Of a stretch of DNA of 64,000 nt, positions 1 to 46,916 are shown piece by piece. Position 1 is the stretch's first letter. Each line of letters begins with the position of its first letter. The position numbers were made by a program, and so were the translations under genes. The stretch covers positions 128,001 through 192,000 of the IMG/VR virus record IMGVR_UViG_3300028591_000078. One strand, 5' to 3'. The notes under the pieces are model-generated. The model had not been told where the DNA came from. It did not search any database and saw nothing but the letters and a program-made list of their open reading frames with translations. Source of the DNA: a virus. Lineage: Duplodnaviria > Caudoviricetes.

Positions 1-1334
1 CAACCCTTGATATTCTAACAGAATCGATTCGTTATATAAATTTGATATATATCATGTTTTAACTCTTTAACCTAATATGATAAATTCGCTCATTCTAATT
101 CATTATTAGGACTTGATACTTAGCTTGAATTAATTCATTAAGGTGGTCTGATACCTTTGACGAAATAAATCAATAAGTCTCGTTGATATTTAATTTTTCA
201 TGGTTCATTAAGACTATATGATATTTATATTAATTTAATTCAATAGATCTGGATGATACTTGCTTCTGTATAATTCATTAGCTTGCTTTGATATTTATAT
301 TATTTTGATTTAATAATCCTTGATGATATTTAGATGTCGATGGTTCATTATCCCTTTATGATATTTATTCGGTACTGGTTCATTGCGCCGATTTGATATT
401 TACATCTAACTAATTCATTATGATGATGTGATATTTAATAATATGCAATTCAATATTCGCGTTTGATATTTATTATGTCCTGGTTCAGTAAAATAGTATG
501 ATGCTTATTACTAGATAATTCTTTAAATTCCATTGATATATAATTTGACATGATTCATTAAATTTCAATGATACTTAGACGAAGCTAATTCATTACACTG
601 CGGTGATATATAGTTTGTTTTGATTCATTAAACTTCAATGATATTTAGTAAGTCTTAATTCATTACGATTAAGTGATACATTGAGAGACCTAATTCAATA
701 TGGTTTGATGATACTTTCAGATTTATAATTCCTTAAATCCACATGATATTTATTTACTGCAGATTCTTTAAGTTCTATTGATACGTAGTTTGCTGTGATT
801 CATTAATGGTCAATGATACTTAGTTAAATTTAATTCTTTATATTCCACTGATACTTATTTTAAGATGATTCTTTAAAGTATCTTGATACTTATTGAGGTT
901 TAATTCGTTAAGACTCATTGATACTTATTAAGCAATAATTTAATACTCCTGGATGATGCTTAGGATTTGATTGGTTCATTAACTTTTAATGATATTTAAT
1001 TCGATTTGATTCTTTAAATTCTCTTGATACATAGTTTGATATGATTCATTATAATTATTTGATACTTATCGGAGTATAATTCAATAGCTATATCTGATAC
1101 TTAGTACGATTTGATTCTATAGTGCACAAATGATACTTAGCCATGTTTAATTCATTAAAGCTCGATGATAATTACATATTCATGATTCATTATTTAACTT
1201 TGACATTTAAGACCACTTAACTCATTACAACTCGATGATACTTAATAGATAATAATTCATTATATCATTTTGATATTTATTGTCGTTTTGATTCGTTATT
1301 TGACCTTTGATACTTTGAACTTCTTAACTCACTC
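1..1334 (-). repeat. Non-coding dual-repeat/dual-spacer array: 38 units of ~35 bp, TGATAYTTA-N8-TRRTTCATTA-N8 on + strand; candidate TIGR-like guide-RNA array; truncated at left edge
   Basis: The TGATA motif starts at 8, 43, 78, 114, 149 ... 954, 990 ... 1095, 1131 ... 1271, 1308 (period 35, occasionally 36-37). Spacers vary, the period is not a multiple of 3, and there is no ORF. An early-type promoter at 1330-1346 points into it on the - strand. Confidence 0.9.
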
Positions 1335-1346
1335 TAATAATATATG
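1330..1346 (-). promoter_or_regulatory. Early-type phage promoter directed into the 35-bp array
   Basis: Minus strand CATATATTATTAGAGTG matches TATATATTATAATAGTG (29124), TATATATTATAGTAGTG (29974) and TATATATTATAATATTG (5664). Confidence 0.7.
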
Positions 1347-1375
1347 ACCAAAAAAAGCAACTTTTTCACAAGGTC

Positions 1376-1387
1376 AACATATCTATA
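1376..1387 (+). promoter_or_regulatory. Late promoter AACA-N6-TA
   Basis: AACA TATCTA TA upstream of the RBS and CDS at 1414; same motif as AR9 nvRNAP promoters. Confidence 0.7.
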
Positions 1388-1413: not shown

Positions 1414-2631
1414 ATGGGTAAATTTGTCAATAAAACTTATACTAATACTGTCAATAATTTGGTAGATAGCCAAATTAAGAAGTATGATAATGCTAATTAT
1501 GTCTTTAATGACAAAGCCCCTTATATTGTAGACTTCTATAATCCTAATAATGCTACTACTTTAGCGGAAGGATCTAGACTTAGTTTTGAATCTATAGGAC
1601 CTAATAGCCCTGTTAAATACTCATATATCAAAGACGCAGTAATATACATCTCTGGAGGTAGAATAGAGTTTAACCTTGAAATCGGAGAGTTTGGCACAGA
1701 AGCTTCTGGTGTAGAAGGTGAGGCTTATATACTTCCTAATACGTTTAAACCTATGCCAGGTGCATTCTTTGTATTCAATCATGCTAGTAAAGACTATCTA
1801 TTTATAGTAACTGGTGTTGATATGGATACTATGGAGAATGGAAACAACTGGTATAAGATGCAGTATGCATTATACTATATAGGAAAAGAGACTTATGATA
1901 AACTCAAGAAACAAGTTACAGAGAATTACCATATGATCTCTGACAATATAGGAACAGAGTTTAAGTCTGTAATCAGACAGACTGACTATGATCTTATAAA
2001 CAAAGTAGAACCCTTACTGGATGATATAAGAACATTCTACAACTCGATGTTTTTCAAAGAGTCTCTCCAGACATATGTATTCTATACAGAAGACAATAAA
2101 TATTTCTATGATCCGTATACAATAGAATTTATGTCTAGAACTGGCATAATGAACGATTCTAATCATTATATCTATATAACTCAAGCATTACATCTTCCTA
2201 CTACATTCCCTATCGAATATGATAGAAGCTTCTGGAAGTGTTTTGAAACCAGAAATTGGGAGAAGCTTCCTACTAATAATGCATTCGGTAGATATATAGA
2301 GGATCCGAATTCATTGTTTGTAACCAGACTCGAAGATTACTATTATGCTATCTATACTCCTGATCTGTGGTTCAACTGCTGGCAGCCTCTTGATGAGAAG
2401 GTTATAGGAAATATACAGAATAGACTCTACTATCCTTTTGATGATCCTAAGGCTATATATAATATACTTACAGATTACTTTAGAAATCCCGAGTCTATAA
2501 TCTCTGCAGAGAATCTCAAGGCTATAGATGATCTTGATATGATTCCTACTAGAGACCTCTTTTATCTTATACCATTGATTATATTCTGTATGGAAAGTGC
2601 TATAAAATCAATGCTTCTAACATATAAGTAA
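1414..2631 (+). CDS. Probable virion structural protein
   Basis: Long ORF; GAGGAGG RBS at 1401-1407 favours ATG 1414; late promoter upstream. Confidence 0.55.
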   Translation: MGKFVNKTYTNTVNNLVDSQIKKYDNANYVFNDKAPYIVDFYNPNNATTLAEGSRLSFESIGPNSPVKYSYIKDAVIYISGGRIEFNLEIGEFGTEASGVEGEAYILPNTFKPMPGAFFVFNHASKDYLFIVTGVDMDTMENGNNWYKMQYALYYIGKETYDKLKKQVTENYHMISDNIGTEFKSVIRQTDYDLINKVEPLLDDIRTFYNSMFFKESLQTYVFYTEDNKYFYDPYTIEFMSRTGIMNDSNHYIYITQALHLPTTFPIEYDRSFWKCFETRNWEKLPTNNAFGRYIEDPNSLFVTRLEDYYYAIYTPDLWFNCWQPLDEKVIGNIQNRLYYPFDDPKAIYNILTDYFRNPESIISAENLKAIDDLDMIPTRDLFYLIPLIIFCMESAIKSMLLTYK

Positions 2632-33958: not shown

Positions 33959-34061
33959 TACAACAATTCCTCCTTATAGAATTATTTATTATAAAGTTAG
34001 CTAAGTAGTGTTAAACTTGAATATTTTGATTACATACTATAAAGATGAAAGGAGTAGTAAT

Positions 34062-34490
34062 ATGGAAACTGCAAAAGAATTTTTTGATGAGTTCTTAGAT
34101 ATGAGAGAAGACCTTCCTGAGTTAGTATTTGACAAGTCTAGTTCTAAAGTATATAAAGTAGATAGTGACACATTACATCAGATGAATTTGCGTCTTTATG
34201 ATTCAAATGACAGCAATTATTTTGAGATAAAGATAAATGTATCTCTTTTAAAAGAAGATGATTCTGGTGAAGAAATAGAACGTATGTGGATACATATATC
34301 AAAAGATGGTAAAGATAAAGGTGGTATATACCTTCGTATGTATAATTGGTCTAACTACTATTCTATATATAAGGATAAGATCAAAGATATTATATGTGAT
34401 ATATGGAAAAAATATGGAACAGATTCTGATTTCATAGATTTTGCATGCGATCTAATAAAGATTATCCATAATCATTGTCTAGGTATATAA
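34062..34490 (+). CDS. Accessory paralogue family A, copy 1
   Basis: METAKEFFD... highly similar to the next gene's N-terminus; early promoter at ~34031. Confidence 0.75.
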   Translation: METAKEFFDEFLDMREDLPELVFDKSSSKVYKVDSDTLHQMNLRLYDSNDSNYFEIKINVSLLKEDDSGEEIERMWIHISKDGKDKGGIYLRMYNWSNYYSIYKDKIKDIICDIWKKYGTDSDFIDFACDLIKIIHNHCLGI

Positions 34491-34519
34491 TATACGTAAT
34501 AACAAAAAGGAGTAGTAAT

Positions 34520-35800
34520 ATGGAAACTGCAAAAGAATTTTTTGATAAATTTTTAAACATGAGAAAAGCTCATCGTGAGCTAGTATTTGACAAGTCTAGT
34601 TCTAGAGTATACACACCAAATAGTAATATATCGCATCAAATGTTTTTACGTCTTTGTGATTTAGATGATAGCAACTATTTTGATATAGAGATAAATATAT
34701 ATGCTTTAAAAGAGGACAATTCTTGTGAAGAAATAGAACGTATGGTGATACATATAATGAAAGATGATGAAGAGGAAGGAAATATATATCTCCGTATGTA
34801 CCACTGGATCAATTATTATTTTATAGATGTAGATAAGATCAAAGAGACTATATATGGTATATGCAGAAAATATGGAGTAGATTCCAATTTCTTAGATTTT
34901 ACATGCAATCTAATAAAAATCATCGATAACTATTGCTTAGGTATGTATCCATATACAATAACAGAAAGGAATGATAATATGGAGCATTTAAATTTAGATA
35001 AGGCATTTAATATTATCTTTGATAAGAAAATGTCAATGGCCAAAATAACCTATGAGGTATCATTTTATGAAAACTCTGTATGTAATTCAGTTAGTGCAGA
35101 TGTCTATATAACTAACCCTAAAGTATTTTCTATTCACTTTACTCATTATATTAAAGAGAAAGATAAAATTCGGGTTATAAATTACAATGTCAAGGATTCT
35201 CTATTTACCCCTCCTGATATAATGGTTGATAATAAAACTGGTGATATAGATATATTTACCAATTCTAAAAATGGAGATGAAGGATTCAAAAGAATATCTG
35301 TAGAAGAACTGAGCGTTATACTCAATAAGCATGCTTTAAATAAGGAAGTGTCAGATCTTTTTAGTGAGATTACCTTATTAATAGGAGATATGCAAGAGTT
35401 TGCTAAGACTCGAATAAAACCATCCGGCCCTGATATTATAGAGTGTATAAGCAAATATGGATATAAAGTCTATAATATAAAAGCCACTGATGATAGTCAG
35501 GCATCTATTATAATTAAACGTCATGAGCCTGATGCTGAGTGCGAGGATGGGTATGATATATTAGTAAATACTATAGAAAAAGAAGGAGATATTCTGATTA
35601 GTAAAACTAATACAGAGAAATTCTTGATAGATATTGATGATCTAATATCTAATCTCTATATCTTTGATAAAGAAAATAACCTGTATAAGCGTATTAGTGG
35701 AAGTGATTTATTTGATACTTATTATATAGAAGGTCATTTTCCAAAACTCTTAGATGCAGAACTTCGTTATGCTATCTATGATATATGCTTTGAATTATAA
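34520..35800 (+). CDS. Fusion of family A copy 2 and family B copy 1
   Basis: N-terminus repeats the 34062 gene; internal RBS+ATG at 34979; C-terminus LDAELRYAIY shared with the next gene. Confidence 0.75.
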   Translation: METAKEFFDKFLNMRKAHRELVFDKSSSRVYTPNSNISHQMFLRLCDLDDSNYFDIEINIYALKEDNSCEEIERMVIHIMKDDEEEGNIYLRMYHWINYYFIDVDKIKETIYGICRKYGVDSNFLDFTCNLIKIIDNYCLGMYPYTITERNDNMEHLNLDKAFNIIFDKKMSMAKITYEVSFYENSVCNSVSADVYITNPKVFSIHFTHYIKEKDKIRVINYNVKDSLFTPPDIMVDNKTGDIDIFTNSKNGDEGFKRISVEELSVILNKHALNKEVSDLFSEITLLIGDMQEFAKTRIKPSGPDIIECISKYGYKVYNIKATDDSQASIIIKRHEPDAECEDGYDILVNTIEKEGDILISKTNTEKFLIDIDDLISNLYIFDKENNLYKRISGSDLFDTYYIEGHFPKLLDAELRYAIYDICFEL

Positions 35801-41300: not shown

Positions 41301-44300
41301 ATAAGTACCAGCTACATTAGTTGCAGGGCCACCAGCAGAAGCTGATCCAGCATAGTTATGCGTATGAGACTTAGGGGCATAAGCAGAATCATGGTTATGA
41401 GATGTTGGAGCAGCTCCAATATTACCAGGAGTAATATTGATAGTGCTAGCACTAGACTGGTTAGCAGTAAATGTGCCAAGACTTGTACCATTGCCCTGAA
41501 TAGTAAGTGTACCATTGTTTACGGTATAAGTATGATCTGTCCATGGTACATTAACAGCAAGATATCCAGACTTGTCTAAAACAACAGGATATATTCTGCC
41601 AGCAGTTTCTGTAGCAGCTGCTGAGTCATTTGTAAGGGCTGTTTCAGATTTGAGTTTTGTCTTAAATGTAGTTCCACTTAAAGTTAAACCAATACCAGCA
41701 GAATAAGTAGTGTTATTATCTGCAGGCATGGTGAATATATATGACTGACCACCAGCTGTAATAGCATACTTACCACCATGAGCAAGTGTAATCTGATTAG
41801 TACCAGTAGATGTAGCTATACTTATAGCATGCGTATGGTTACCCGGAGCTGCATCAGTTGCACCAGTACCAACAGGTCTCCATGTATTCGTATCAGCAGG
41901 AGTTGTAAAGATATACGACTTACCACCAGCAGTGAGCTGATACTTGGTATTAGCTGCAAGAGCTATTGAACTTGTACCACTAGAAGCAGCAATACTTATA
42001 TCATGAGTATGACCACTAGTAGCAGCTCCAATATTACCAGGAGTAATATTGATAGTGCTAGCACTAGACTGGTTAGCAGTAAATGTGCCAAGACTTGTAC
42101 CATTACCATGAATGGTAAGAGTACCATTGTTTACAGTATAAGTATGGTCTGTAGGTGTAGTGAATATAATACTCTGACCACCTGCAGTGAGTTTATACTT
42201 TGTACTCGGAGATAATGTAATAGTGCTTTCACCATTATCTGCAGCAAGTGCAATACTATGAGTATGACCAGTAGGAGCAGCTCCAATATTGCCAGGAGTA
42301 ATATTAATGGTACTATCACCTGCCTGGTTAGCAGTAAACGTTCCAAGACTTGTTCCATTACCCTGAATGGTAAGAGTGCCATTGTTTACAGTATAAGTAC
42401 TATTTACAGGTGTAGTAAAGATTATTGACTGACCACCTGCAGTAAGCTTATACTTTGTGCTAGGACTAAGAGTTATAGCACTGGTTCCAGAATCTGTAGC
42501 AAGTGTTATACCATGAGTATGATTACCATAAGCGGCATTGGAAGCTCCTGTGCCGAGAGCAGGGCTAGTAATAGTAATATTACCATTTGCATCACTAGTT
42601 ACAGTTGTTCCACCAGCACCAGCAATCTTTCTTCTATCTCTAGCAGTACCATTGTCGCAGATAATCAGATAAGTATTGCCATTAGTAGTTGCAGCATTTG
42701 CATTACCATCAGAAGCTCCAGCATAAAGATGTGAAGTCCAATGAGTATCTGCAGGTGTTGTAAATACATAAGAGGTTCCACCAGCAGTAATAGCATACTT
42801 TGTAGAAGCAGCCAGACTAAGCTGATTAGTTGCACTAGAAGCAGCTATAGATGTAGCATGAGTATGATTACCATAAGCTGCAGTAGTAGCAGATGTGCCA
42901 AGAGATGGCATTGTCATCGTAGTGGTACCCTTACCTGTTACATGACCCTGAGCATCATAAGATACTGTAGGAATGGTAAATGTATCGCCAAATGTAAGAG
43001 TCTTAGTAGCAGAACCAGATGCAGTGCCTGCAGTAATAGCATTAGTGTGCTGGAATGTCAAACCATCATCAGCAATTTCAATACCACCACCGGCAGCAAA
43101 TGTAGGAAGTGTAACAGTGGTTGTACCTTTACCAGTTACATGACCCTGTGCATCATAAGATACTGTAGGAATACTAAAACTTCCACCATTACCTATGGTT
43201 GCTGTAGCAGAACCACTAGCAGTACCAGCAGTAACGGCATTAGTATGCTGGAATGTCAAACCATTTAGCTTAATACCAGTATTAGCTGTATAGGTAGGAA
43301 TTGTTATAGTAGTGGTACCCTTACCTGTTACATGACCCTGAGCATCATAAGATACTGTAGGAATACTAAAGCTTCCGCCATTACCTATAGTTGCTGTAGC
43401 AGATCCACTAGCAGTGCCAGCAGTTACACTATTAGTATGGCTTATCTTATTGCTAGCTAAGCTTATACCTGTACCTGCTGTAATAGCTGTCGAAGATCCT
43501 ACATGGCCATGAGCTGTAATACCTATAGCATAGAGTGCTTCAGATTTAGCTGTAGTATTTCTAGCAGAATCTGTAGCATGTGTATATGCAACAGCACCTC
43601 TATCTCCACGATATGCTGTAGAAGATGTTTCACCGAGTGCAAGATGAGAACCAATCGGAATATATGATTCTCCACCCCAACGATACTGAGTATTAGTAGC
43701 CTTAGCTACATATATCTTACCCTCTTCACCAGTATCAGGGAAATCATCTACTGTATCAAAATTCAATACGTCATCATAAGATCCAGGTATCTGAGAACTA
43801 GGAATCTTACCAGAAGAATCCAGAGTAGCGATACCATTATTGGATCCCATCAATGCTGTAACTGTGCCGATAGCCTGTGCAACAGCCTTACCAGATGTAG
43901 GTGTTGTACCAGTACTGGAATAAGTATCGGTTGTATCCATGTATGCAGAAGATCCAAGTCCCTTAACTGCTACATTAGCACTAGTACCATTAGTATTTAC
44001 ACTGATAGTACCATTAGCTGTACCTGTAGCTATAGATCTTACACCAGAGTTTGTAATAGATGTTCCAGAAACTGTAACACCATTAGACCCAGTATAAGTA
44101 GGAAGTGTGATCTTAGTAGTACCCTTATCTGTAATATGACCTTGTGCATCATAAGTAATAGTAGGTATTTCAAAGTTTCCACCATTACCAAGTGTAGATG
44201 TAGCTGTACCAGAAGCAGTACCAGCAGTAATAGCATTAGTGTGCTTAAAATTCAGACCATCAAGCTTGATACCATCACCTGCACCAAACTTAGGTGTAGT

Positions 44301-46916
44301 AATAGTAGTAGTTCCCTTGGTAACTATATGACCATGCTTATCATAAGATATGGTAGGCATGCTAAAGCTTCCGCCATTACCTATAGTAGATGTAGATGTA
44401 CCAGATGCTGTACCAGCAGTTACATTATTTGTATGCATGAAGGTAAGACCATCTTCACCGATCTCGATACCACCATCAGCAGCATATTCAGGAAGGGTAA
44501 TCGTATTAGTTCCCTTTGCTGTAATATGACCCTGAGCATCATATGTAATAGTCGGAGTTGTGAAGCTACCACCATTAACAAGAGTGCTAGTAGCAGTACC
44601 CTGAGCAGTACCAGCAGTTATAGCATTAGTATGCTTAAAGGTAAGACCGTCTGTATCTATCTTAACACCATCACCAGCCTTAAATGTAGGCAGAGTCATG
44701 GTGGTTGTACCCTTAGCTGTAATATGACCTTGAGCATCATAATTTACAGTAGGCATATTGAAGCTAGCACCATTTGTGAGAGTCTTACTAGAAGATCCTG
44801 CAGCGGTACCAGCAGTTATTGCATTAGTATGCTTAAAGGTAAGTCCATCTTCATCGATTTCGATACCATCTGTAGCTGCATATTCAGGAAGAGTGATTGT
44901 ATTAGAACCACTACCTGTAACATGACCTTGTGCATCCCATGTAACAGTCGGAGTCGTGAAGCTACCACCATTTTCAATAGTGCTTGTTTCTGTACCCTGA
45001 GCTGTTCCAGGAGCTATAGCATTAGTATGCTTAAAGGTTAAGCCATCCGTATCTATCTTAACACCATCACCAGCCTTAAATGTAGGAAGTGTGATAGTAT
45101 TGGTTCCCTTTTCTGTTACGTGACCCTGAGCATCATAAGTAACAGTGGGTGTAGTAAAGCTTCCGCCATTAGCAAGTGTAGATGTAGCAGTACCCTGAGC
45201 AGTGCCTGCTGTAACAGCATTAGTATGCTTAAAAGTAAGACCGTCTGTATCTATCTTAATACCATCTCCTGCAGCATATGTAGGATTGGTTATAGTAGTT
45301 TTACCATGTGCAGTTACATGACCCTGATCATCCCAAGTAACAGTAGGAATATCAAAGCTTCCACCATTAGCAAGAGTGCTAGTAGCAGATCCAGATGCTG
45401 TTCCAGTACCTACAGCATTAGTATGCTTAAAGGTCAGGCCATCAGTATCTATTTCAATACCATCTGTAGCTGCATATTCAGGAAGCGTAACAGTAGTGCT
45501 AGCATTGCCAGTTACATGACCATGCTTATCCCAAGTAACAGTAGGAAGATCTATAGTACCACCATTCTCTATGGTAACACCTTCAGAACCCTTAGCTGTA
45601 CCAGGAGTTACATTGTTAGTGTGCTTGAAAGTAAGCCCATCGGTATCTATTTTAATACCATCGTCTGCAGCAAATGTAGGAAGTGTAACAGTTGTTTTAC
45701 CCTTAGCAGTAACATGACCATGCTTATCATAAGATACTGTAGGAATATCAAAACTATCACCATTATCTGCAGTAAATGTAGCAGATCCAGATGCAGTGTC
45801 TGGAGTTACATTATTAGTATGCTTAAATGTAAGTCCATCAGTGTCAATCTTAACACCATCATCAGCTGCAAATGTAGGAAGTGTAATAGTATGTGTACCC
45901 TTACCAGTTACATGTCCCTGAGCATCGTAGCTAACTGTAGGTGTGGTGAAACTTCCACCATTAATAAGCGTACTTGTATCTGTACCTTCAGCAGTACCAG
46001 CAGTAATAGCATTAGTATGCTTAAATGTAAGTCCATCTTCATCAATTTTGATACCATCAGATGCAGCAAACTCAGGAAGAGTTACTGTAGTGGTACCCTT
46101 GCCAGTTACATGACCCTGAGCATCATAGCTAACTGTGGGTATATCAAAGCTATCACCATTCTCTGCAGTAAAGGTATCAGAACCCTTAGCCGTAGAAGGG
46201 CTAATAGCATTAGTATGAGATATCAGAGTTCCACCAGTAACCTGAATACCATTGTTTGCAGAATATGTAGGCAAGGTCATGGTGGTTGTACCCTTATCTA
46301 TAATATGACCCTGAGCATCATATCTTACTGCAGGAATCTGGAAAGATCCACCATTGCCAAGTGTAGTAGTTGCACTACCCTGAGCAACGCCAGGTTCAAT
46401 AGCATTAGTATGCTTGATCTTATTGGTATTATCCATAGTAATGCCATCGCCCAGAGTTACAGCTTCTACTTCATGTACATGACCATGTGAAGATGTAGAC
46501 ATCTTATACAGATTCATAGGCATAGCAGTATGAATCTGATCAGGGTCATCAGTATGACTATCAGAATCTCCAGAAGATGATACTAAGATCTTACCAGTAG
46601 CATCAGAAGTTACAGTTACATTACCAGCACCAACAATAGGTACTTCAGTAATAGGATTATCAAATACAGTTTCTAATCTAAGACCAGCTTCACCATTAGT
46701 AGCGTTAGCTTTCTTAGATACAAGGTTATACAGATCCATTGTAGTGAGACGTTCTGCAACAGAAGTATCTACTCCATAGTCTTCCCCATCAGGATCCGGT
46801 ACTATCTTATAATTGGTAGCATTCAGCGGAGTAATTTCTCCAGCTTCGATTTTTCTCTTCCATTCACTAATGGTTATAGTAACCCTAGTGGACTCAGAGA
46901 GGTTCTCGCCAGCCAT
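38358..46916 (-). CDS. Giant tail fibre protein (2852 aa)
   Basis: T/G/A/S-rich; HTH/HNH metal-binding fibre motifs; NGIATLDSSGKIP motif; 66-aa repeats. Confidence 0.85.
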   Translation of the reverse strand: MAGENLSESTRVTITISEWKRKIEAGEITPLNATNYKIVPDPDGEDYGVDTSVAERLTTMDLYNLVSKKANATNGEAGLRLETVFDNPITEVPIVGAGNVTVTSDATGKILVSSSGDSDSHTDDPDQIHTAMPMNLYKMSTSSHGHVHEVEAVTLGDGITMDNTNKIKHTNAIEPGVAQGSATTTLGNGGSFQIPAVRYDAQGHIIDKGTTTMTLPTYSANNGIQVTGGTLISHTNAISPSTAKGSDTFTAENGDSFDIPTVSYDAQGHVTGKGTTTVTLPEFAASDGIKIDEDGLTFKHTNAITAGTAEGTDTSTLINGGSFTTPTVSYDAQGHVTGKGTHTITLPTFAADDGVKIDTDGLTFKHTNNVTPDTASGSATFTADNGDSFDIPTVSYDKHGHVTAKGKTTVTLPTFAADDGIKIDTDGLTFKHTNNVTPGTAKGSEGVTIENGGTIDLPTVTWDKHGHVTGNASTTVTLPEYAATDGIEIDTDGLTFKHTNAVGTGTASGSATSTLANGGSFDIPTVTWDDQGHVTAHGKTTITNPTYAAGDGIKIDTDGLTFKHTNAVTAGTAQGTATSTLANGGSFTTPTVTYDAQGHVTEKGTNTITLPTFKAGDGVKIDTDGLTFKHTNAIAPGTAQGTETSTIENGGSFTTPTVTWDAQGHVTGSGSNTITLPEYAATDGIEIDEDGLTFKHTNAITAGTAAGSSSKTLTNGASFNMPTVNYDAQGHITAKGTTTMTLPTFKAGDGVKIDTDGLTFKHTNAITAGTAQGTATSTLVNGGSFTTPTITYDAQGHITAKGTNTITLPEYAADGGIEIGEDGLTFMHTNNVTAGTASGTSTSTIGNGGSFSMPTISYDKHGHIVTKGTTTITTPKFGAGDGIKLDGLNFKHTNAITAGTASGTATSTLGNGGNFEIPTITYDAQGHITDKGTTKITLPTYTGSNGVTVSGTSITNSGVRSIATGTANGTISVNTNGTSANVAVKGLGSSAYMDTTDTYSSTGTTPTSGKAVAQAIGTVTALMGSNNGIATLDSSGKIPSSQIPGSYDDVLNFDTVDDFPDTGEEGKIYVAKATNTQYRWGGESYIPIGSHLALGETSSTAYRGDRGAVAYTHATDSARNTTAKSEALYAIGITAHGHVGSSTAITAGTGISLASNKISHTNSVTAGTASGSATATIGNGGSFSIPTVSYDAQGHVTGKGTTTITIPTYTANTGIKLNGLTFQHTNAVTAGTASGSATATIGNGGSFSIPTVSYDAQGHVTGKGTTTVTLPTFAAGGGIEIADDGLTFQHTNAITAGTASGSATKTLTFGDTFTIPTVSYDAQGHVTGKGTTTMTMPSLGTSATTAAYGNHTHATSIAASSATNQLSLAASTKYAITAGGTSYVFTTPADTHWTSHLYAGASDGNANAATTNGNTYLIICDNGTARDRRKIAGAGGTTVTSDANGNITITSPALGTGASNAAYGNHTHGITLATDSGTSAITLSPSTKYKLTAGGQSIIFTTPVNSTYTVNNGTLTIQGNGTSLGTFTANQAGDSTINITPGNIGAAPTGHTHSIALAADNGESTITLSPSTKYKLTAGGQSIIFTTPTDHTYTVNNGTLTIHGNGTSLGTFTANQSSASTINITPGNIGAATSGHTHDISIAASSGTSSIALAANTKYQLTAGGKSYIFTTPADTNTWRPVGTGATDAAPGNHTHAISIATSTGTNQITLAHGGKYAITAGGQSYIFTMPADNNTTYSAGIGLTLSGTTFKTKLKSETALTNDSAAATETAGRIYPVVLDKSGYLAVNVPWTDHTYTVNNGTLTIQGNGTSLGTFTANQSSASTINITPGNIGAAPTSHNHDSAYAPKSHTHNYAGSASAGGPATNVAGTYSGNGGQLTPSAVSNATVRFVMMNNPKGLSGFPTYADCLLMDTYSGNDVPWSTGLGIIKQDAAPRMFLFNGAKGNTTTWKNINEVLTTSNYSSYAATSGHTHAISIAESTGTNQITLAHGGKYQITAGGKSYIFTMPADNNTTYSAGTHLTLSGTTFNVTARNNTKGGPLGWTSTSADNILITSNTLAYWNGAYADTSSNLEYCKKGAFGTIVTKNAGDYALTSHGNHVPDTQTANNSIFLRNDNTWQRVTPANIGAATSGHNHDTVYTHKFHYGGTGNTTKIKIKINSTTSWMLSFVVNLYQSYRATSVLISGYQYGNSHWYSPTAVVLGDSTNAAINVYFGYDSANNLWVGFDGGDYTGVSISNVTNGYTQIDNFAGLFTISNVSSLTTLQTTVTAQPPSLKGHTHTKSQITDFPSSMPASDVYAWAKASTKPTYTASEVGAAPTRHDHTEMAMRAQCTTADAANAFHYPGYVTACKVSNSVCGSYTDGMIIDIPWSDSYGHQIYIDDNSLTIGHRYMNQKTWSGWATLLDTNNWSSYAAPASHTHTVSQITDLPTISDSATNSTLVKRTSSGYIFATYLNQSSGAETPTTSSYIIYANSDGYLRKSSLANIKTILGLGSAAYTDSTAYAASSHSHTPASIGAAAASHTHYSLATIGDQRNVATTPNSYSNTFTFMGLKSKATIGSPSDDTYSYLIGLRGWSDNSGGKSHELAFNDTGLYHRIGATTSWEAWKKIAYTSDIPTVYAWAQASTKPTYTASEVGAAPTGHDHTIALAASSGTSSISLAANTKYQLTAGGKSIIFTTPADTNTNNAVTQTATSTNANYEVLFSVTADNTTRTEGARKNSNLTFNPSTGNLNVTQINGVTVGSSPKFTDTNTTYSAGTGISLSGTTFSNSGVRSIATGSSNGTISVNTNGTSANVAVKGLGSAAYTASTAYAAASHDHHSTAYGTQALRHLASGTAAATTTNCPSGAWYGYHS
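42900..46415 (-). repeat. 15 copies (12+3) of a 66-aa (198-bp) intragenic tail fibre repeat
   Basis: HTNA.TAGTA.G....NGGSF..PTV.YDAQGH.T.KGT; GCATTAGT recurs at 198-bp spacing (44821, 45019, 45217, 45415). Confidence 0.85.

Follow-up and report, generated by a model that had tools for sequence, protein, structure and literature searches.

Two large TIGR-type arrays and a distant TasA-like gene in a probable AR9/PBS1-like jumbo phage of the ruminant gut

The locus and its genomic setting

The stretch of DNA analysed here, referred to as the window, is 64,000 nucleotides long and corresponds to positions 128001-192000 of a 238,365-bp IMG/VR phage contig that is estimated to be 97% complete. The phage is a distant relative of AR9 and PBS1, with 37% identity in the terminase. 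At its left edge the window opens inside a lattice of two short alternating repeats that are separated by short variable segments, and the same genome holds a second lattice of this kind; the two are called array 1 and array 2 in the order in which they lie on the contig. Each of them lies where replication genes (DNA polymerase B, primase) adjoin virion genes. Array 1 has the DNA polymerase B gene and a 217-aa open reading frame (ORF) on one side and a virion structural gene on the other. The gene to the right of array 2 keeps the same flank in the relatives L089-L092 and marks the syntenic site. The arrays and this neighbouring gene are as follows.

Genome 81,704-83,493 (L001:9704-11493), same orientation as array 2: array 1, about 49 units with the same repeats
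Genome 126,882-129,316, RNA predicted from the minus strand: array 2, whole, 2.45 kb, about 69 units
Window 1..1316, minus strand: right-hand, promoter-proximal part of array 2, about 37 of the about 69 units, 35 nt each
Window 1414..2631, plus strand: gene for a putative head-tail joining protein (PF24214, E 1.5e-9), outside the TIGR system

Architecture of the arrays

A first-pass annotation, made from the letters of the window, had described a phased 35-bp dual-repeat lattice, and this lattice is real. The pattern TGATAYTTA-N8-TRATTCATTA, with two mismatches or fewer, has 30 matches in the window, all on the plus strand between 114 and 1262, as against a mean of 0.06 in shuffles of the window, with none of 100 shuffles reaching 30. 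Successive anchors between window positions 8 and 1308 are separated by 35 bp, and TRF run on the window reports periods of 35 and 70. With the anchor columns fixed by the regular expression that was used, the two 8-nt segments carry 0.00-0.14 bit per column, compared with 0.6-2.45 bit in the repeat columns. The reading of the lattice as non-coding also stood, as no ORF of at least 60 aa crosses array 1 or array 2. That the array runs off the window was correct too, and its extent had been understated: array 2 continues 1,119 bp leftward beyond the window edge, to genome position 126,882, and array 1 lies 45 kb upstream of it in the same 238-kb genome.

Array 2 is made up of 139 repeats, the two kinds numbering 69 and 70, and of 138 spacers; the length is exactly 8 nt in 128 of these spacers, and 136 are distinct, in agreement with the near-fixed length and variable sequence that had been noticed at the start. 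Array 1 holds 99 repeats and 95 spacers, 94 of them distinct. When both arrays are pooled, 214 of the 233 spacers are 8 nt long and 230 differ from all others, and the arrays together comprise around 118 units and occupy 4.2 kb of the phage genome. Read on the minus strand, a unit consists of an edge repeat (UAAUGAAUYA, 10 nt), an 8-nt spacer A, a loop repeat (UAARUAUCA, 9 nt) and an 8-nt spacer B, with the two repeats alternating throughout. Both repeats start with UAA and end with UCA on this strand, the edge repeat ending in UCA or UUA about equally often, and the UA and UCA elements may be equated with boxes D and C. Complementarity between spacer A and spacer B within a unit does not go beyond chance.

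In CRISPR-Cas arrays one repeat of 25-36 nt recurs between spacers of about its own length, and a CRISPR-Cas identity was ruled out by the two alternating repeats of 9-10 nt and the 8-nt spacers. Archaeal and eukaryotic box C/D sRNAs carry RUGAUGA and CUGA boxes that form K-turns, and their Nop5-type protein is detectable with the Pfam Nop model. This machinery (Nop5-fibrillarin-L7Ae) was likewise ruled out, with PF01798 found nowhere in the genome, no Rfam family in the window and no tandem GA boxes. The features do correspond to those of the arrays of TIGR-Tas, which was described in 2025 as an RNA-guided system that targets DNA; in TIGR arrays, two repeats of 8-12 nt alternate with short spacers of fixed length (PMC12045711), and the unit of 35 nt fits the TIGR value of about 36 nt, the period being 36 in the SpTIGR array and 34-39 in the viral relatives considered below.

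The Tas protein P0003

The first-pass annotation had recognised no Nop-domain protein in the window, which is true, and had proposed a search of the sequence to the left. The genome does encode a Tas homologue, P0003, 20.6 kb to the left of array 2. The gene and its neighbour are listed here.

Genome 104,733-106,298, left of array 2: tas gene encoding P0003, 521 aa
Genome 106,391-107,959 (L004:6391-7959), directly 3' of tas: ResIII/DEAD helicase gene, assigned by Pfam

Searched as a single sequence, P0003 matches the TasR structure 9MTY (the complex published by Faure et al.) at E 5e-4, the match being made up of two collinear stretches. With a family profile built from P0003 and 13 homologues, the E values are 1.1e-20 for TasR, 5e-7 for TasH and 3e-3 for the IS621 recombinase; at E <=0.001 the family comprises 3,984 representative clusters. 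When the contig is searched with this profile, P0003 is the single tas gene returned. Searches of the genome with Pfam Nop (PF01798), with Transposase_20 (PF02371) and with the SpTasH protein gave no match, P0003 itself going undetected by both Pfam models, and none of the GenBank phages was matched when P0003 was run against them with tblastn. Another candidate was P0001, the 217-aa ORF whose end lies immediately ahead of array 1; it belongs to neither a Pfam nor a PHROG family, lacks a GxGP-type motif, and was dropped once P0003 had been found.

Structural modelling places P0003 among the Tas proteins. The AF2 model from a 77-row alignment has a pLDDT of 88 (a single-sequence fold with a pLDDT of 35 was discarded), and the top 11 Foldseek matches of this model are all TasH or TasR. 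In VIA-align the model reaches Z scores of 17.8 with TasH and 15.5 with TasR (rmsd 2.4, 23% identity across 192 aligned residues), compared with around 10.7 for IS110-family proteins and at most 7.7 for all other chains. The structural alignment is limited to the Nop parts, residues 64-309 of TasH and 112-322 of TasR, and begins after the nuclease domains of these proteins; no HNH or RuvC domain is found in P0003, and Pfam detects no nuclease family in it. Residues 1-110 form a charged, low-complexity N-terminal tail, and about 190 residues of the protein are insertions. Given a structural match confined to the Nop part and a tail of this composition, P0003 is a TasA-like protein that lacks a nuclease. 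Its Tyr465 and His472 align with Y289 and H296 of SpTasH, the processing residues of that protein (PMC13421893), and are nearly invariant in the family alignment. According to a preprint, a Tyr/His processing pair on the C-terminal Nop loop is present in dual-repeat Tas proteins and not in stem-loop Tas proteins.

The helicase gene also directly follows tas in relatives with 42-44% Tas identity, and the C-terminus of the helicase carries three NPF.H motifs.

Separation of tas from the arrays

The distance from tas is 20,584 bp to array 2 and 21,240 bp to array 1. In the relatives with 42-44% Tas identity (L005-L007), no array lies within 10 kb of tas, and in the relative with 44% Tas identity the gene and the syntenic array are around 25 kb apart on the same strand of one 60.9-kb contig; the separation of tas from its arrays is therefore a conserved trait of this lineage. 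A tas gene beside the array is the typical locus, a layout of which TIGRFinder makes use, and there is no mechanistic requirement for it. As tas is adjacent to neither array, the proposed pairing of P0003 with the arrays is drawn from the homology of both parts and not from adjacency.

That homology can be followed through 279 viral contigs that encode relatives of P0003. Of the 80 loci of such relatives that were kept, the majority carry arrays with a period of 34-39, in most cases adjacent to tas. Among the viral relatives, the one encoded by L009 (IMGVR_UViG_3300028833_000193) comes closest to P0003 (27% identity, E 6e-39), and in L009 an array of the form AAAUGAAUCA-N8-AAAAUAUCA-N8 lies just downstream of tas in the sense direction and ends in AAAUGAA and a terminator. 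Because the repeats of this sense array are the reverse complement of the plus-strand lattice in the window, the RNA of arrays 1 and 2 would, by homology, be the minus strand, and the positions of promoters and terminators also point to minus-strand transcription of both arrays. The transcript repeats UAARUAUCA and UAAUGAAUYA that had been proposed from the window are thus backed by relatives, promoter and terminator alike.

A sister array of about 15 units, TGATATTTA-N8-TGATTTATT-N8 with a period of 35, is present at L008:6296-6810 (IMGVR_UViG_3300032030_000481). No tas is found on this 17-kb fragment of a more AT-rich phage, the fragment being 7% of the genome.

Promoters and array ends

The sequence elements at the right-hand edge of array 2 and at its far end, together with the other sites of the same promoter class in the window, are as follows.

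Window 1319..1373, minus strand: early-type promoter aimed into array 2, with the core TATATTAT at 1344-1337, followed by 6 nt and G
Window 1325..1334, minus strand: degenerate first edge repeat of array 2, GAGUGAGUUA as against UAAUGAAUYA
Window 1376..1387, plus strand: AACA-N6-TA motif, the AR9 late-promoter consensus (PMC5312081), facing the structural gene and divergent from the array promoter
Genome 126,833-126,872 (L002:14833-14872), between the primase stop codon and the array end: hairpin at the end of array 2
Window 3968(-), 5637(+), 29097(+), 34004(+), 58226(+) and 63168(-): promoter-class sites

The genome has a conserved class of promoters with the core TATATATTAT-N6-G, and this class matches the early promoter consensus of AR9, AAATATATATTAT-N6-G(+1), which belongs to the virion RNA polymerase (PMC5312081). 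The sites of the class are around 45 nt long (GTAAAA..AAAGATTTCAATTATATATTAT-N6-G), highly conserved and about 20-25 in number genome-wide. A weight matrix was built from 19 other sites, with the array flanks left out, and all positions on both strands were ranked with it. The minus-strand promoter at the right edge of array 2 scores 25.9 and ranks 21 genome-wide, its counterpart at the right edge of array 1, also on the minus strand, ranks 25, and another weight-matrix site stands before tas. In the intergenic stretch to the right of array 2, 64 aligned columns are identical in the strain L090. When the AR9 rule, TATATTAT-N6-G(+1) (PMC5312081), is used to predict the start at array 2, and in array 1 likewise, the predicted start is a G inside the first UAAUGAAUCA-like (UAAUGAAUYA-like) repeat, and the RNA would therefore begin with an edge repeat cut at its 5' side.

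The far ends of the arrays are built in a comparable manner. In array 2 a 15-bp hairpin with A and U runs (-17.7 kcal/mol, z -4.0) comes after a final UAAUGAA, and in array 1 the last edge repeat is nearly complete (UAAAGAAUUA) and is followed by a G+C-rich hairpin of 9 bp. The hairpin of array 2, whose A and T runs lie on opposite sides, is conserved in L090 and L091 and could terminate both of the convergent transcripts, from the primase side and from the array. A simple terminator scan did not flag this hairpin, a sigma-70 promoter scan showed no enrichment, and no public RNA runs holding the array sequence were listed. The TATATTAT/TATACTAT-N6-G motif and the cut first repeat occur at the same site in L090, L091 and L089 (98%, 64% and 51% primase identity, respectively), and the 3'-cut edge repeat with its hairpin recurs in L090 and L091 only. 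Cut terminal edge repeats and a hairpin end are the published anatomy of TIGR arrays (PMC12045711). An AACA-N6-TA-like motif is also found to the right of array 1, again facing the structural gene, and by their resemblance to the AR9 consensus the motifs on the right of both arrays may be late-type promoters.

These array ends bear on the idea that the lattice acts at the level of DNA, as a set of protein-binding sites in a replication origin, a partition system or a packaging signal, with an incidental likeness to TIGR arrays. The placement of both arrays at borders between replication genes and virion genes would suit such a role, and a filament could still be phased by the 35-bp period even though this does not divide evenly into helical turns. 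Yet a promoter and a terminator frame each array on one strand, other viruses carry repeats of this family next to tas genes, oriented in the sense direction and closed by a terminator, and a cognate Tas is encoded in the genome, and iterons give no reason for two alternating repeats with exact 8-nt gaps of free sequence, all of which makes a DNA-level lattice scarcely credible. The origin or segregation lattice and the RNA decoy, both of which had been named as alternatives in the first-pass annotation, gained no support.

Turnover of units and the search for targets

The gap between the primase and PF24214 genes that holds array 2 is 2,546 bp long in this phage and 744, 1,934 and 2,697 bp long in relatives. 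The array was compared with that of L090, whose primase is 98% identical, by a unit-level alignment; an alignment with MAFFT gave a spacer divergence of 20%, which is overstated, and was set aside in favour of the unit-level one. Among the aligned spacers, 53 are identical, 24 have one change and 14 have two or three, and a further 36 half-units are specific to this phage and 39 to L090, so that around a quarter are strain-specific. The repeats differ between the two strains by 3.6%, the flanks by 4.0% and the spacers by 8.0% (p 1e-4). In contigs from other ruminant-gut runs there are joints that add or remove 35, 70 or 210 nt (1, 2 or 6 units), as well as one of 107 nt (about 3 units). The comparison of related phages for gain and loss of units, proposed with the first description of the lattice, thus had a clear outcome, as strains differ by whole units, and from the joints and the divergence rates against L090 it follows that the repeats are constrained and that spacers and units turn over. 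The rate of single substitutions in aligned spacers, twice that of the repeats, would fit a weak constraint on many of the spacers.

The split targets that had been envisaged for the spacer pairs were not found. No exact 16-mer target of a spacer pair, in four geometries, occurs in the phage's own genome, where near matches are at the level of shuffled spacers, and no spacer-pair target was found in 1.4 Mb of related viral loci. Both this outcome and the higher divergence of spacers between strains (8.0%, as against 3.6-4.0% for repeats and flanks) could be expected if the arrays were relics, that is, former TIGR arrays that are perhaps transcribed, with spacers that guide nothing and drift neutrally. 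This is a very improbable reading for arrays whose repeats keep their consensus over about 118 units and are conserved between strains like the flanking coding genes, whose promoter motif and truncated first repeat persist in L090, L091 and L089 and whose terminator end persists in L090 and L091. The tas gene is moreover intact, with its Tyr/His pair, and the arrays take up 4.2 kb of the phage genome.

Comparison with known TIGR-Tas systems

The closest published parallel to the array design comes from the Salicola phage CGphi29, whose SpTIGR system has 16 variable nucleotides per unit. When its array is read directly (NC_020844), two 10-nt repeats, spacers of 8+8 nt, a period of 36 and a terminator at the end can be seen. 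In SpTIGR-TasH (PDB 9W03, 9W04, 21KL) as in the present system, a phage carries a dual-repeat array whose units each hold two 8-nt spacers and which ends in a rho-independent terminator, and the protein has the same Nop fold (Z 17.8) and the conserved Tyr/His pair. The differences are that the Sp repeats are AAGACAACCA and AAGCGAGCCA with a period of 36, in around 11 units directly after tasH, whereas here the period is 35 and about 118 units are divided between two arrays 20 kb from tas, and that SpTasH has an N-terminal HNH nuclease, whereas P0003 is without a nuclease domain and has large insertions. Since a Tas is encoded in the genome and spacers of 8+8 nt were already known from SpTIGR, the system is not new but a large and oddly arranged example of the known TIGR-Tas kind. 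Of the original proposal of a TIGR-like or new system, the TIGR-type dual-spacer array therefore stands and the novelty falls, and the 8-nt spacers can no longer be regarded as a departure from TIGR.

The FpTIGR-TasA system of Flavonifractor plautii (Faure et al. 2025, PMC12045711) resembles the present one, FpTasA being likened by description only, in its solo Nop effector without a nuclease and its alternating edge and loop repeats. Published dual-repeat TIGR-TasA arrays differ in that they mostly have 5-15 units, lie beside tas and have 9-nt spacers (PMC12045711). TaTIGR-TasR, from a Thermoproteota archaeon (9MTY), provides the best sequence relative of P0003 with a solved structure, and the two have in common a coiled-coil plus Nop architecture and a C-terminal HGGH..YI.P motif. 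TasR differs in its active RuvC (residues 1-111) and its 9+9-nt spacers, and in array repeats that run UG...CCA, where the arrays here run UAA...UCA; the repeat motif is said to diverge yet to covary between both repeats. L009 has nearly the same repeats as arrays 1 and 2, a period of 35, 8-nt spacers and the same ending of AAUGAA plus terminator. It differs in that its array, of around 8 units, follows tas by about 300 nt on the same strand, with a second short array 6.5 kb off, and in that its contig is 53 kb long and not a jumbo phage. Orphan CRISPR arrays that are served in trans by distant cas genes are comparable, by analogy only, as remote guide arrays with their own promoter, their repeats, protein family and target reading being unrelated.

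Set against the published arrays of mostly 5-15 units, the guide set of about 118 units is very large. What is unusual here is this number of guides and the distance of 20-25 kb between arrays and tas; the arrays also carry probable early promoters. Within the paper library that was searched, none of the papers deals with TIGR-Tas and jumbo phages together.

Proposed mode of action

Taken together, the findings make it very probable that an AR9/PBS1-like jumbo phage of the ruminant gut carries two dual-repeat TIGR arrays, the lattice being part of one of them, and that the TasA-like P0003, the only Tas homologue found in the contig, would serve both of them in trans. Early in infection, the virion RNA polymerase would initiate at the TATATTAT-N6-G promoter that borders each array on the right and would transcribe the minus strand leftwards as far as the hairpin at the left edge. 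A Tas dimer would then bind each 35-nt unit through the matching UAA starts and UCA/UYA ends of the edge and loop repeats, and the Tyr465/His472 pair would cut within the edge repeats, yielding about 118 tigRNAs with two 8-nt spacers each. Each tigRNA would guide a Tas dimer to a 16-bp DNA site at which one spacer pairs with each strand. With no RuvC or HNH domain, the expected outcome is binding, by way of repression or occlusion, and not cutting, and the host or rival mobile elements are more likely to harbour the targets than is the phage itself. Nuclease-free TasA has been described as a reversible RNA-guided repressor that acts by itself (bioRxiv 10.64898/2026.09.09.750476), and by analogy the preferred reading is that P0003 is such a repressor as well.

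Cascade recruits Cas3, and the same arrays and Tas could by a similar route bring about DNA damage if the complex recruited a separate enzyme, for example the ResIII/DEAD helicase or an unlinked nuclease. The helicase gene follows tas here and in the relatives with 42-44% Tas identity, and the roughly 190 inserted residues of P0003 and its 110-aa charged N-terminal tail could be considered in the same light. However, the whole region is syntenic in these relatives, so the adjacency may only reflect a conserved gene order, the helicase is without a nuclease domain in Pfam, and the published TasA represses alone (bioRxiv 10.64898/2026.09.09.750476), and the recruitment of a damaging enzyme is accordingly judged unlikely. 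The early promoters of the virion-RNA-polymerase type would be a plausible timing signal for the arrays. It is a tentative and rather doubtful extension that remote arrays with early promoters of their own might make about 118 guides for a nuclease-free Tas within the first minutes, and that this amounts to multiplexed RNA-guided silencing, run by the phage, of the host chromosome or of rival elements.

The locus touches on several questions about TIGR-Tas systems, namely their natural targets, the growth of their arrays and the role of a nuclease-free TasA for a phage, and natural strains that differ by whole units are useful for the study of array turnover. A lineage with remote arrays would be missed by array finders that scan only around tas and, if such arrays are common, they could explain the roughly two thirds of catalogued tas loci that have no nearby array.

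Other features of the window and occurrence of the phage

Window positions 41998-46160 and 34048-34983 contain long coding tandem repeats with units of 198 bp (10.4 copies), 255 bp (2 copies) and 192 bp (2.7 copies), together with a duplication of 458 bp. These sequences probably encode domains that recur within large virion or adhesin proteins. The sequencing runs that hold the array come from sheep, bovine and goat gut metagenomes in 13 studies. The primase of the related phage contig L089 (ENA ERZ28653423 scaffold_939) is filed in NCBI under a Pseudobutyrivibrio MAG, which gives a weak hint of a host among the Lachnospiraceae.
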